Shown: positions 9,001 through 15,000 of the stretch, one piece after another
Layout of the letters: every line of letters starts with the position of its first letter
Position numbering within the stretch: position 1 is the first letter of the stretch
Origin: a virus
Lineage: Duplodnaviria > Heunggongvirae > Uroviricota > Caudoviricetes
Virus record (IMG/VR): IMGVR_UViG_2541047795_000003
Coordinates: 1 to 49,802 of that record
Length of the DNA: 49,802 nt
Strand: one strand, 5' to 3'
Program-made: the position numbers

Positions 9001-12000
9001 GATTTTTTAACCCGACACCCTGACGCGGTTGTGTTCAGTGCGAAAAAACGCCAGTGGGGAAGTCAGGAAGATTTGGTGTGCGCACAGTGGATCTGGGGAC
9101 GAATCGTGAGTCTTTACGAGCAGGCGGCCAGCTATGATGGCGAGATCACTAGACCGAAAGAACCCAACTGGACAGCATGGGCCAATGACGTTCGCACAAT
9201 GCGGATGCTGGATGGCAGAACTCACAGACAAATTTGTGAAATGTTTGGGCGTCTCCAGCGGGATTCGTTCTGGGTAAAAAACATCATGAGTCCGGCAAAA
9301 CTCCGGGAAAAATGGGATGAACTGGTTATCCGCCTGGGGCGTTCGCCTGCGCAGCGTTGCGTGAATCACATTTCTGAACCGGACACTGAAATTCCGCCGG
9401 GCTTCAGGGGGTAAGTGTTAATTTCTGGTCATGAGGTAATTTTCAGGAGGGCTTGTGGCAAAAGTTTTTACACAAGAAGAGCGGGAAAAAATTAAAGGGC
9501 TGATCGTGGAATTCGTACGCCTTAACGGACGAGGCACGATTCGGCAGTTATCGGATGAAATTGGTGTCAGTCATGCGTCTGTCGGTCGTTTATGCATGGA
9601 GCTGGCCGCCAGTGGTGATGTTTACAATTCCGGTTACGGAGTATTCCCGTCTGAGCAGGCGCGCAAGGACTGGCAAAACGCCCGCAAAAAACTCTCAAGG
9701 GCAAAGCTGAAGAAACCATCTGTGGTTGATCCGGACCTTATCTGGCTATTACCAGACGGCGAAATACGCCGCTACGACAGGCGTCAGAACATAATCTGTC
9801 GCGAGTGCCGGAAGAGCGAAGTTATGCAGCGCATATTGTCGTTTTATCAGGGTAATTTTCAGGAGGTAGCGCAGTGAGTGCACCGGCAACCATTCTTGAT
9901 ATGTGCTGTGGCAGCCGCATGTTCTGGTTCGATAAGAATGACGACCGGGCGATATTTAGCGATATCAGAAAGGAAGAGCACACATTATGTGATGGACGAA
10001 GACTGATAATTAGCCCTGACCTGATAGCAGATTTTCGTGCATTACCATTTGCAGACGCATCGTTTCCGGTTGTTGTATTCGACCCTCCGCATCTTGAGCG
10101 TGTTGGTGATAACGCCTGGATGGGAAAGAAATATGGACGGCTGAATAAAGATACCTGGCGTGATGATTTGCGGCAGGGATTTAAAGAAGCCTTTCGTGTG
10201 TTGCGGCCATACAGCGTTCTGATTTTTAAATGGAATGAAACGCAAATACCTGTTCGCCAGATATTGGCACTGACCGACAGAAAGCCTGTTATCGGTCAAC
10301 GAACAGGAAAGGGTGACAAGACCCACTGGATTATTTTTATGAAGGAGGCGACCAGTGAGCAAGATTGACTATCAGGCACTGCGCGAGGCGGCGGAACAGG
10401 CAACGCAAGATGAATGGGTAGCATATATTTTGCCGGGTCATAACGGCATTTATCCTGCGCGCACGTCTGAGGGTAGGCATTGTGCGGATACTTTATTGAC
10501 TGGCCTGGCGTCTGTCAGGGGCGGGAGAGCATCAACATGAGCATCAGAACCTACGCAGTGAATTGCAATGACGCATGGCTAAACACCGAAGGTGATGACA
10601 TCTCCGGCTCATACGTTAAGTACAAAGACCATCAGGAAGTGGTTGCCGCTCTTGAGGCCAAGTGCGCGGCGCTGGCGGCGGAGAATGCGGTAATAAAGTC
10701 TGCAATTCCAGAACCACGGGATATTGAGGACGACAATGACAATATGGATGACGTATCTCTTGCTGAAGATTTCGGGTTCAATCATGCAATAGAACTGATG
10801 AGGAGACGGATTCCTGAAACTCCGGCCACCGATGCTTTCCTGGCTGAAGTACGGGCGCAGGGCGTGGATACAGCTATCGAGCACCTGCATAAGAAGTTTA
10901 AAGGAACTGTGCTTGTTGGCGTCCCGGTAATGGCGTTGGAGTATTTAGCCGCAGAGCTTCGCAAAGGAGGCAACCAGTGAGCGAAATTAATTACCAGGCA
11001 CTGCGTGAGGCAGCAGAACGTGCAATTCCAGCAATGGAACGCCTGTTAATGTTGCCAACTGATGATGATTTGTTAAGTGAACAGGAACTTAAAGATTACG
11101 GTGTGGATATTGATGCGCTCAATGCCTTCAAATTTCTGACCGGACCAGAAACCGTGCTGGCACTACTGGATGAACGGGAAAGGAACCAGCAATACATCAA
11201 ACGCCGCGACCAGGAGAACGAGGATATTGCGCTAACGGTAGGGAAGCTGAGAGTTGAGCTTGAGGAAGTAAAACAACACGCTGAAGAATTATCCGAAACC
11301 AAGGCTGTTCGTAACCAATGGCGGCCAGATATTTGCCCAATAACCGGACGTGCATTTTTCATGTGGATTGAGCATCCAACATTGGGGAATGTGCCGACAT
11401 ATGGTGGCCCATTAGATAGTTACACCATTCCAACAAAGGACGGTGACGGTGAGTTTTCATGTGAGCGTTACGATCATGATTTTGGCGGTTGGGTAGAAAG
11501 CGAATGTCTTGGGTTATATCTGATTGATGATAGAGAACAATGCAGGGTCTACGAACTGGAGGAACGCGTTAAGGAACTGGATGCTCGGGAAATATCGCTC
11601 CCGGAACGTAGCAGCATGCTTCATCGAACAGATTTTCACGATGATTACCAAACGGTAATGGCATACAAAGTTTCTGAAGTCATCGCTGCAATCCGCGCCG
11701 CTGGCATTCGCATCAAAGGAGAGTGATATGGCGTTAACACACCGCGAACTCTGTCAGATTGCGTACAAGTTCCTTAAGCGCAACGGGTTCAAGGTTTGCT
11801 TTCATGACCGCTTTGTTGCTGTAACCAGTACCGGAGAACAGCCAGATGCTATGGGATTCAGAAATTCAGCATCATGCCTGATAGAGGCGAAGTGTTCTCG
11901 TGCTGACTTGTTGGCAGATAGAAAAAAGCGTTTCCGTAAAAATCCCTCACTTGGCATGGGCGACTGGCGATTCTTTATTAGTGAGCCGGAAATTATTTCA

Positions 12001-15000
12001 GTTGAGGATTTACCTCCCGGCTGGGGATTACTTCACGTTGTTAACGGAAGAGTACGGAAAGTACATGGATGGCCCAGGGGTAATTGCTGTTGGGGTAATC
12101 CTGACGATAAGCCATTTACTGGGAATAAGCAGGTTGAATGCGATTACATGTTATCTGCATTAAGGCGCATGGAGTTGAGAGGGCACCTTAATGAAATATA
12201 TGACGGTGTGATTGTTAATAAGAAAGAAGGAAACGCGGCATGATCACTATTACCAAAGGGCGACTGCTGACAATCAAGCAGTGGCGCGAAACATACGGAC
12301 CGGGTAGCAACGTTGTACTGCCAGCAGAAGAAGCGGAAGAACTGGCACGAATTGCACTGGTATCGCTGGAAGCAGAGCCGGTGGCAAAGATTATAGCTCA
12401 TTACCCATTAGGAGTTGACGTAGGCAAACAAAAGTTCGTACAGGCCATTGGAGAGCTTCCTGACTTTGGCGGATATCTATTTGCCGCCCCTCCAGCGCCG
12501 ATAGTGCCGGAAGAAGCAACTCCGGAAAACGTAGAAATGCTCTCTGGCTATGTTTCCACGTACAAATTAACCGATAGCGAGCGCGATATTGCTGCCGAAA
12601 TATGGAACGCCTGCCGCGCCGCTATGCTTCATGGGAAAGGAGAGTGATATGGCAACTTTAACAAAAAAAGAACGGGCATGGTTGAACGAATTACAGGACG
12701 TTCTTGATCGCTGCCCATCACCGAAAAAAATTGGTTTTTACACCATTGGCGATAAAAGCATTTACCTGTATGACCTGCGCCGCATGGATGAAATCATGGA
12801 GGCTCTTGATAATCGTTCGTCGATGGATTGGTGTGTTGCTGTTCATGATATGAATGCAGGGTTTGATGAAAAGATTTTGTTCCCCTCATCAGTTGAAAGC
12901 ACTGCGGGTTAAGGAGTAACACATGACCACTATTACCAAAGAACGTATTGAATTGTTCATTAAATTTTCAGGAGGCGGTACTGTGAGTGAAATTAGCTAT
13001 CAGGCTTCAATTACCGCTGGCATTCGCATCAAAGGAGAGGAGCATGGAAATAAAACCAGAGGATGAGTTAAGCAATATCGTTTTATTTCCGGTAAAAGAG
13101 GATGACCCTCGTAATCAGGTTAATTTTCTTTATGAGCCATCGGAAAGACCATATTGTCATCACGCCTCTGTCCGGGTTGACGAAAAAGAGCGTCAGGTCC
13201 GCTGTAAAATCTGCGGTGCAGTTGTGGAACCATTTGACTGGATGCTCTCTGTGGCGAAAAGAGAAACCAGACTGGCAGATGATGTAAGGCTATTGCGCCA
13301 GGAGGAACAGGAAAGGCGAAAAAATATAGAAAAGCTAATTCAGATTGAGCGTAACGCGAAAGCGCGGATACGCAGGGCGACAAAATCCAGAACTGAATAA
13401 TTAAATTTAGCTCTGTTAAAAATTTAATCCTTAACCGGAGGGATTTCTGCACCCTCAGAACATCAGGAGGCCGCCCGAAAGGGCGGTAGTTAAATGCGAA
13501 AGTTTAAAATAATTATTGAAACGGGAATAGCCGGTGGAGATTTCGAGGATGAATTCGAAGTGGATGATGATGCGACGCCTGATGAAATACATGACGAAGC
13601 AAAAGATATTTTCTTTAACTACTGCAATTACTCATATCACGAAATAAAAGACGAAGAGGAAGAGCAAAATGGCTGATTTTGGTTCAACTAAATACAACGT
13701 CAGTTTTGAAGCATGGCATGAACTGTTAATGGACTATGCAGAGTTACGTGGTGGCAGTGCTGCTGATGCTGAAGCATGGCGTGATGATTATGAAGCAGGA
13801 AAAACTCCGGTCGAAGCATATTGTGATGAGTGGGGCGATGAATGAGCGAGGTTAATTATCAGGAAGGGCATGAAACGGCGGGGCAAGCAAAAACAGTGGC
13901 ATGGCGATATCGCTACGTGAAAAAAAAGGCGTTACGGACTTTCAGGGGAAGTAGTGGTCTGGTGACTGGAAATATGTACCGAAAAAAGAGGATTGTAACG
14001 ACAGGCCGAACTATGAAATTCAGGCCTTATTCACTGCCCCGCCAGTCCCGGTTACATCAGAAGAACTGGTTAAAGCTGTGCACTTTTATGAACAACTAAA
14101 ACGCGAAAATCCACCAGCATCCGGAAACCTGATTACAGATTCCCAGATAAGGCAATGAGCTACCTGGCGCAGAACGGGCTGATAAGTATGGGGAATGTTT
14201 TACGATGAATATTTAGACTAAAGAGTTTGTAACGCTATGTAAGTGATTTTTTCTGGTTTAGATATTTATATGTCCGGCCAAATTGAGGTGTGTTTAAATG
14301 TAATTGCACATTGATTGTAGGAGGAATAATGAAAAACGCATTGCAGTTTTTGTTTGTTGCGTTCTGGTTGTTCGTATCATGTATGCCCATCATCTTCACA
14401 GCAAGGTATATGGAAAAAGTTGATGTTTTGATATTAATATTTGGATATATAAATGCCCTTTTTTTAGGGGTGTTCATGGCGGTCATGTGCATTGAATACT
14501 GGCGGTAAATACAGCGAACGCCATTGGTTTAGTTGGATATTTACTGTGCCGGACAAAAACGGTTTGCGGGGAAATCTTAGTTAAGTAGAATGACTGCGGG
14601 TGCTTGAGGCTATCTGTCTCAGGCATGAACACCAAAAGGCAGATAGAGAAAAGCCCCAGTTAACATTACGCGTCCTGCAAGACGCTTAACATTAATCTGA
14701 GGCCATATCTATGCGACACATAGAGATTAGCCTCTTACGGACCGAAAGGTCAAGGAGAAGCAGGCTATGAAGCAGCAAAAGGCGATGTTAATCGCCCTGA
14801 TCGTCATCTGTTTAACCGTCATAGTGACGGCACTGGTAACGAGGAAAGACCTCTGCGAGGTACGAATCCGAACCGGCCAGACGGAGGTCGCTGTCTTCAC
14901 AGCTTACGAACCTGAGGAGTAAGAGACCCGGCGGGGGAGAAATCCCTCGCCACCGCTGATGTGTCAGGCATCCTCAACGCACCCGCACTTAACCCGCTTC

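Follow-up and report, generated by a model that had tools for sequence, protein, structure and literature searches.

We analyzed an accessory gene block in a prophage of Escherichia coli. The prophage is contained in the IMG/VR virus record IMGVR_UViG_2541047795_000003, which was considered over its whole stretch of 49,802 nucleotides (nt), hereafter the window. The block is part of the early-right operon of a defective lambdoid prophage and lies between the replication gene and hok/sok. It carries several copies of short sequence islands, 35–60 nt long. Across hundreds of prophages of enterobacteria, hardly any DNA but these islands is common to cassettes that otherwise are unrelated. The modules to the left and right of such a junction assort independently, and close relatives of the prophage differ by cassette replacement or by presence and absence of cassettes, with the endpoints in islands. 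We consider it likely that conserved gene-end islands and homologous cassette exchange, together with rarer illegitimate joints, explain the block. An earlier note on this DNA had taken the repeated boundaries for recombination linkers. They do lie at module boundaries, but they are not dedicated elements: what recurs are coding ends, those of Ea22-family genes, of DUF977 and of DUF551-type genes, in which Shine-Dalgarno (SD) sequences are embedded.

Gene-end islands, Ea22-like genes and a composite scar

Four kinds of island were distinguished: the 5’ end of lambda ea22 with its SD, the 3’ end of lambda ea22 with the SD of the next gene, the 3’ end of DUF977 with an SD, and the 5’ end of DUF551-type genes. 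A fifth shared island, the Ea22 coiled coil, is intragenic. All block genes and all islands are on the + strand. In order to judge the repeats we compared them with shuffled sequences, and a chance similarity was ruled out, the expectation lying between 0 and 0.25 copies.

The 24-mer GCTGGCATTCGCATCAAAGGAGAG is identical to the 3’ end of lambda ea22 (...GCTGGCATTCGCATCAAAGGAGAGTGA, translated AGIRIKGE*) and occurs in exact copies at 11700 and 13016, with 0 expected in shuffles. The first copy is part of the Ea22 3’ island at 11693–11732, which reads ..AAGIRIKGE* and continues into TGAtATG; AAAGGAGAG, the last three codons of ea22, doubles as the SD for whatever gene comes next. The 18-mer AAAGGAGAGTGATATGGC is found exactly at 11715 and 12636 (expectation in shuffles within 0 to 0.25), the second copy representing the right half of the island (12631–12653) at the end of a non-Ea22 gene. 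The AGIRIKGE junction had been reported to recur three times. Two occurrences are borne out by the exact 24-mer, but the one at 12630 consists only of ..GKGE plus the half with ribosome binding site, stop and start (63% over 43 nt).

The DUF977 linker is represented by the 16-mer GGTAATTTTCAGGAGG, exact at 9435 and 9851 and with 13 of 16 positions at 12960 (0.25 expected in shuffles at three or fewer mismatches). Each copy is located 7–8 nt upstream of a GTG start. The observation that aattttcaggagg precedes three GTG starts therefore holds for all three, but two of the copies and the DUF977 (helix-turn-helix) gene, at 9435–9880, fall outside the interval that had been assigned to the block. 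Copy 1 (9435–9450) lies in the gap that follows the replication gene and is the SD for the DUF977 GTG at 9455; this context is kept in about 20 IMG/VR loci. Copy 2 (9851–9880) comprises the DUF977 3’ end, the SD and GTGAGTG, the start of the next gene, and is the left copy of a 27-nt direct repeat (D9). Thus AATTTTCAGGAGG is the DUF977 3’ end (..YQGNFQE..) plus the SD for the following gene, and another copy serves as SD of DUF977 itself. A third context, suspected at the 3’ end of DUF551-type genes, was not found with a relaxed pattern.

A degenerate 22-mer describing the Ea22 start matched four times, at 10355, 10977, 12983 and 13842, with 0 expected in shuffles; lambda ea22 itself begins with GTGAGCGAAATTAAC..., translated VSEINSQALREAAEQA. 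The 5’ island is present as copy 1 at 10342–10403 (SD AAGGAGGCGACCA, GTG and SKIDYQALREAAEQA) and as copy 2 at 10964–11025, and it takes in 13 nt upstream of the GTG (AAGGAGGCRACCA). Upstream genes read this stretch in two frames, the methyltransferase as ..KEATSEQD* at 10342 and Ea22-like gene 1 as ..KGGNQ* at 10964, so it is conserved as the leader and start of Ea22 and not for the upstream protein. The intragenic island at 11145–11275 repeats the central coiled coil LLDERERNQQYIKRRDQENEDIALTVGKLRVELE of lambda Ea22 and has breakpoint clusters at both edges.

Short conserved sequences flanking exchangeable single-gene cassettes are also what a dedicated, integron-like site-specific system would display, in which the junctions are sites for a specific recombinase. 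We attach next to no likelihood to this explanation. The junctions lack attC-like inverted repeats, and the only two inverted repeats detected are short and lie elsewhere. No integron-type integrase adjoins the block, the prophage int being about 9 kb away, and the junctions are coding sequence plus SD that differ between junction types.

Ea22 is a multidomain, highly diverse family (PMC8614690, PMC7093339). Like lambda Ea22 (Ead_Ea22, PF13935), the window proteins have the N-terminal helix MSEIN(Y/S)QALREAAE, the central coiled coil and the tail AGIRIKGE*. They differ from it in their inserts and C-terminal domains and in being encoded in the early-right operon instead of the exo-xis region; furthermore, one copy is frameshifted and another is reduced to a stub of about 20 codons. 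The gene at 10977–11726 (gene 2, 249 aa; PF13935, 3.1e-29, 102.7 bits at a gathering cut-off of 27) had been described as the only full-length copy. It is the only intact one, but gene 1 (10355–10980) is full-size as well. Its open reading frames (ORFs) of 61 and 147 aa, at 10355–10540 and 10537–10980, belong to a single gene that an insertion of 2 bp (TG, at about 10481–10482) has split, as the alignment to the copy from O104:H4 showed. The intact form in O104:H4 prophages has 228 aa and matches Pfam Ead_Ea22 end to end (positions 1–138, 95.7 bits); the two halves match positions 1–45 (54 bits) and 48–138 (39.4 bits), again with a cut-off of 27. Piecewise PHROG matches and the comparison with lambda give gene 2 a lambda-type N-helix, a variable insert, a lambda-type coiled coil, a variable domain and a conserved C-terminal segment of about 55 aa.

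Starts of Ea22 type were correctly noticed at all four positions, but the frame at 13842 shares only its first seven codons (MSEVNYQ) with Ea22 and is not an Ea22 gene. When aligned to L001 5153–5512 (phage vB_EcoS-689R5) it proved to be a pseudogene of a 119-aa family (13842–14158), broken by two extra A in the run 13921–13928 plus a CAG>TAG change near 13953. Neither 12923–13066 nor 13842–14099 nor the intact 119-aa homologue gave an Ead_Ea22 or other Pfam match. Several of the copies that seemed to frame the block are decayed gene stubs within a defective prophage.

The 47-aa ORF at 12923–13066 has no stop ahead of the start of the next gene. Its description as a chimera was right as to its composite nature but had omitted a fourth part: a DUF551-type 5’ stub (12923–12962) is followed by the DUF977 3’ linker (12963–12982), an Ea22 5’ stub (12983–13005) and an Ea22 3’ stub (about 13006–13043). 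Other prophages carry a full-length Ea22-like gene between DUF977 and the island at 13015, one of them reading ...TGIRIKGEEHGNKTRG* into the zinc-ribbon gene, and 12983–13043 is thus a collapsed Ea22 gene. We found the collapsed scar in 979 of 5426 complete E. coli genomes, in most cases immediately downstream of DUF977. The whole joint of the window was detected in only 73, so that the arrangement in the window is derived.

A local tandem duplication of ea22, followed by divergence and decay, might also account for the presence of four starts and two ends of Ea22 type, two of them stubs, on 3.5 kb of a defective prophage. The repeats would then be remnants of paralogues and would say nothing about exchange with other phages. 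We regard this as highly improbable: genes 1 and 2 have unrelated bodies and are alike only in the islands (82% over 62 nt), each of the segments has relatives with 93–99% identity in other phages in which they are arranged differently, and the collapsed scar is older than the arrangement in the window, as its position in the 979 genomes indicates.

Junctions and cassettes in other prophages

We scanned IMG/VR for exact matches to a 21-mer of the junction and obtained at least 120 contigs. Among the matches listed, 104 instances were flanked by 700 nt or more on each side, and 300 nt per side were clustered. The 3’ junction connected 25 upstream clusters with 18 downstream genes in 53 combinations, and for several cluster pairs all four combinations occurred. 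The commonest downstream partner was the gene of the 118-aa zinc-ribbon protein (34 of the 104), and in seven of the loci listed the 87-aa gene (cluster D3) comes immediately after a genuine Ea22 3’ end. The DUF977 linker is followed by at least four different genes in other prophages. Junctions at module boundaries are thus a feature of many phages, and the similarity of the termini is not confined to the window.

The conserved stretch at these junctions is short. Across 118 distinct contexts, compared in ungapped register, base conservation of 0.75 or more was restricted to about -6 to +27 around the 3’ junction, an island of about 35 nt, and fell to 0.3–0.5 on either side. In 63 contexts the 5’ island was conserved from about -13 to +50 around the junction. 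A scan at the amino-acid level for GI(R/S)IKGE* found the identical 24-mer at 105 of 122 sites and a single differing base at another 14.

Close relatives of the prophage show how the cargo varies between conserved junctions, in agreement with the proposal that it is exchangeable. In L255 (NZ_OZ040035), which is 97.8% identical otherwise, the gene for the 164-aa methyltransferase is replaced by an unrelated 88-aa gene (1026–1292 of that locus) with a C-terminal CPFCG motif and no Pfam family. Homology ends on the left at AATTTTCAGGAGG...GTGAGTG and resumes on the right at GGAGGCRACCAGTGAGC. The 88-aa protein ends in ..ATSEQ(D/N)* like the methyltransferase, because both genes read through the Ea22 5’ island. 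A second case is the segment 9881–12962 (3.1 kb), an indel relative to the many prophages in which DUF977 is followed by a single linker copy, GTGAGTGAAATTAGCTATCAGGCTTCAATT... and the zinc-ribbon gene (L108, L004, L061, L083 and others). The segment comprises the methyltransferase, both Ea22-like genes, the nuclease-like gene, the 12240 gene, the 87-aa gene and a stub, and it is flanked by the 27-nt direct repeat at 9854–9880 and 12963–12989. Furthermore, the 87-aa module (12492/12645–12964) is located after the 14117 region in L018, L038, L001 and L006. In L087 the 5’ half of one Ea22 start is joined to the 3’ half of the scar, an arrangement that would be consistent with a crossover within a stretch of about 20 nt shared in the 5’ island. 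Potential partner DNA is abundant: 4697 of the 5426 E. coli genomes contain matching DNA, at a median of 2 places and at no more than 15 in any one genome.

The junctions resemble the lambdoid boundary sequences of Susskind and Botstein (1978) and of Clark et al. (2001; HK620), as far as these are recounted in PMC3233612 and PMC3029335: short conserved junctions between non-homologous flanks, with many partners, at which homologous recombination has been proposed. Both the conserved junction between non-homologous flanks and the independent assortment of modules were observed here. Concerning crossovers within the junction, the swap in L255, the indel at the 27-nt repeat and L087 are consistent with them. 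In contrast to the boundary sequences as described in those two papers, the islands of the window can be named (ea22 5’ and 3’, DUF977 3’, DUF551-type 5’), all of them are coding with an embedded SD, and illegitimate joints and intragenic breakpoints occur next to them.

Probable homologous exchange and illegitimate joints

In the mechanism that we favor, the gene ends are probably conserved for protein and translation-initiation reasons, and the islands would persist for that reason. They would supply 35–60 nt of homology for cassette exchange among co-resident or infecting lambdoid elements, and most exchanges, judging from the positions of the endpoints, would be homology-dependent crossovers inside islands. 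Rarer illegitimate events would give rise to new junctions and to scars, of which the 47-aa ORF would be an example. The role of the islands as recombination substrates is likely a by-product and not a selected linker function. Their lengths appear to match the range usable by annealing proteins of the Red-beta/RecT type; arms of 30–50 nt suffice for Red/RecET recombineering. For Rad52-like phage recombinases, recombination between phages and defective prophages has been found to proceed on short sequences that have diverged (PMC3945230).

The alternative is that illegitimate recombination and selection act alone. Joints would then be random, survivors would be those that keep their genes and the translational coupling, and the islands would be mere termini plus ribosome binding sites that do not target exchange. 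In general this model of phage mosaicism prevails, as quoted in PMC3233612 and PMC3029335. It does not predict that non-homologous flanks should, in 118 contexts, enclose about 35 nt of DNA that is nearly identical even at free synonymous sites, nor does it predict swaps with both endpoints in islands or an indel flanked by a 27-nt direct repeat. In an assay of lambda recombining with prophages, moreover, illegitimate events were below detection and homologous ones were frequent (PMC3945230). We therefore judge an exclusively illegitimate origin to be unlikely.

Several observations nevertheless weigh against exchange through the islands, and some of them speak for illegitimate joining. The clearest is the joint at 12962/12963, the right end of the 3.1-kb block, where codon 14 of a full-length DUF551-type gene (...TTCATTAAA|AACCCG in L018) is fused to the DUF977 3’ end (...GGGTAA|TTTTCAGGAGG in L108). 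With a microhomology of only about 2 nt, this joint is illegitimate. The block also contains scars and frameshifted genes, as described above. Among 178 distinct breakpoint contexts, 77 (43%) were within 30 nt of a gene boundary, as compared to 21% of positions, but 57% were away from gene boundaries, and more than half of the distinct breakpoints are intragenic. The largest clusters flank intragenic islands, at 11145–11159 (26 contexts), 11263–11275 (14 contexts) and 12371–12386; a further cluster is located in the 12240 gene at 12483–12492. Since the edges of islands are the ends of homology almost by definition, the enrichment at edges is no proof that crossovers occurred there.

A further point concerns the source of the recombinase. 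No annealing protein of the Red-beta, RecT or Erf type is annotated anywhere in the prophage, and the 824-aa ‘exonuclease’ (1443–3914, - strand) has only a C-terminal DEDD Rv2179c-like 3’-5’ exonuclease domain. As the prophage encodes none, such an enzyme would need another source; we infer that co-resident or infecting phages would supply it. The system of De Paepe et al. (2014) is similar in that short diverged homologies are used, to which the islands correspond with 35–60 nt at 80–100% identity. It differs in that its substrates were hundreds of bp long (PMC3945230), and the window prophage encodes no such recombinase.

The conservation of the junction DNA also has to be read against the sample, which was picked via the very junction under study and consists mainly of prophages of Escherichia, Shigella and Salmonella that are closely related, so that identity at synonymous sites may stem from recent common descent. 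In Silvania (L198, L221) and Leclercia (L209) homologous proteins have the tail AAGISIKGE*, which is encoded by different codons (GGCATCAGCATCAAGGGGGAGTAG). It is followed by GGGG(T/A)ATG, the next ATG lying 6–7 nt past the stop, and the next gene begins like the small methyltransferase (MSEQTILDMCCG) in L221 and like the 87-aa gene in L198 and L209. The architecture of the junction is thus conserved outside Escherichia as well. Because the tail is kept there with different codons, constraint at the level of the protein and of the SD acts on it across larger evolutionary distances. These constraints alone can be sufficient to explain its conservation, and the uniform junction DNA in the phage pool of E. 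coli, Shigella and Salmonella may reflect recent spread as much as selection at the DNA level.

A species-wide search for the junction in GTDB genomes revealed these Silvania and Leclercia cases but was otherwise of little use, as most canonical matches apparently represent lambda DNA contaminating unrelated assemblies. The lambda ea22 3’ end occurs, in the exact lambda context, on short contigs of GTDB representatives from unrelated taxa (Streptomyces, Prevotella, Bacillus, Streptococcus, Pseudomonas and others; L170, L173, L187, L189, L190, L195, L202, L217, L228 and about 20 more loci).

Taken together, illegitimate events and probably also homologous ones shaped the block. A bolder reading would turn the SD-bearing islands into a selected exchange system that is independent of a recombinase of its own, an ‘integron without integrase’ on which phage annealing proteins act. 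The stub would then be a functional docking or coupling leader instead of debris, and excised circles might form between the direct repeats 9854–9880 and 12963–12989. We hold this to be quite improbable.

Apart from boundary sequences, two known arrangements were compared with the islands. The PeSL cassettes of T4-type phages (Arbiol et al. 2010, PMC2839356) are a functional analogue and likewise have repeated short expression signals that flank non-essential genes in hyperplastic regions, and recombination between PeSL copies mediates insertion, deletion and replacement of the flanked genes (PMC2839356). However, PeSLs are intergenic units of promoter and terminator, whereas those of the window are translation signals fused to coding termini within one operon. 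Morons (Juhala, Hendrix) are similar as small accessory genes of unknown or host-directed function between core phage genes, but they have their own promoter and terminator. A moron architecture was ruled out for the block, in which a consensus scan found no promoter-like site on the + strand and three terminator-like sites as compared to 5.5 expected.

Operon context, cargo genes and implications

The window is a lambdoid prophage, 100% identical to a prophage in E. coli Ecol_316 and five other genomes. Its gene order is int-xis-exonuclease-dicB ... repressor/cro/YdaT, the replication gene (8452–9414), the accessory block, hok/sok (14598–14922), DUF968, RusA, Q, lysis, head and tail. The portal gene is interrupted by an IS21-family element, ISEc10 (32199–34450), and the prophage is therefore defective. 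Within the block nearly every stop/start pair overlaps or is 1 nt apart, and SD sequences embedded in the last codons of the preceding genes couple the small genes on the same strand. The terminator-like sites mentioned above are weak and lie inside genes; together with the lack of promoters on the + strand, their number below that in shuffles is consistent with a single operon. For structured RNA, Rfam returned only sok, downstream of the block at 14598–14769. A complete hok/sok type I toxin-antitoxin locus is located directly 3’ of the block (14598–14922; Rfam sok 106.7 bits, hokD). The late regulatory region at 16803–22856 resembles Stx phages in layout but has no stx genes; it comprises Q, a DNA methyltransferase, tRNA-Ile, tRNA-Arg, DUF3927, IraM and a SASA-family esterase.

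The cargo begins with the DUF977 (‘LygF’) helix-turn-helix gene at 9455–9877 (Pfam PF06163, 2.7e-31; phrog_142, 2e-43, PHROG ‘Ren-like exclusion protein’). It is followed at 9874–10368 by the gene of a small orphan DNA methyltransferase of 164 aa with a DPPH motif (phrog_954), which was the only match in a PADLOC search of the cargo for defence systems (MTase_II, 2.6e-73, covering 3–164 of 169 positions; oMTase, 3.8e-49). The matches to these curated orphan/type II profiles are full length, and Pfam methyltransferase matches were below threshold. Searches of PDB sequences with the methyltransferase and with Ea22 gave no significant match, and NCBIfam yielded no useful result.

Downstream of the Ea22-like genes, 11728–12243 encodes a 171-aa PD-(D/E)xK-like protein, a homologue of P7 Upf89.0. 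It has 308 homologues across Enterobacterales, mostly of 160–176 aa, and D40, E53 and K55 are invariant in 27 of them. It matched no Pfam family and no PDB sequence significantly; the top Foldseek matches of its AlphaFold2 model (AF2; pLDDT 82) are all PD-(D/E)xK nucleases, at a weak level (E 0.007 or worse, TM about 0.3). The chimeric gene at 12240–12647 (135 aa, ending in ..GKGE*) consists of three parts: a DUF551-type 5’ island reaching to about 12374–12386, a middle part found only here, and, from about 12483 on, a C-terminal half that is shared with a gene of phage 689R5 (L001 5514–5954). Its neighbours in P7 and Ss-VASD were considered as well. Both genes are intact, with uninterrupted ORFs, although the RefSeq/PGAP annotation treats the former as a pseudogene and gives only fragments of them, 11728–11906 as ‘frameshifted’ and 12240–12374 as ‘incomplete’. 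The trio of Ea22, 171-aa and DUF551-type genes recurs in P7, within a C1-regulated operon, and in an Stx-type phage, within the exo-xis region, and cassettes therefore move between phage types and operons.

The remaining cargo consists of the 87-aa gene at 12649–12912 (phrog_1714), the zinc-ribbon/coiled-coil gene of 118 aa at 13044–13400 (phrog_1621; the zinc-ribbon match is weak), a small acidic DUF7167 gene at 13494–13676 (Pfam PF23768, 7.9e-15) and an annotated small acidic ORF of 58 aa at 13669–13845. Just past the start codon of the zinc-ribbon gene we noticed a perfect 11-nt inverted repeat, 13046–13056/13080–13090 (GGAAATAAAAC/GTTTTATTTCC), which could affect translation initiation of this gene. 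The only sizeable intergenic gap of the block is 13401–13493. It contains a GC hairpin, GCCGCCC-GAAA-GGGCGG, at 13471–13487, between CAGGAGG (13465) and the ATG at 13494; homology breakpoints cluster in or near the gap, at 13441–13448 and 13486–13494.

The block is a clear and well-resolved but ordinary example of established phage mosaicism, and since the concept is not new its value is illustrative. Its mosaic nature explains why automatic annotation is unreliable here, with intact genes labelled as pseudogenes and scars labelled as genes. It also puts names to exchangeable accessory genes of unassigned role (the orphan methyltransferase, the nuclease-like and the zinc-ribbon genes) that are common to lambdoid, Stx and P1/P7-type phages. 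Both routes of exchange can apparently be seen side by side, with the 24-mer of the ea22 end between dozens of unrelated gene pairs, a clean swap and a clearly illegitimate joint, so that the question of reassortment at linkers versus random joining plus selection can be posed here with named sequences.

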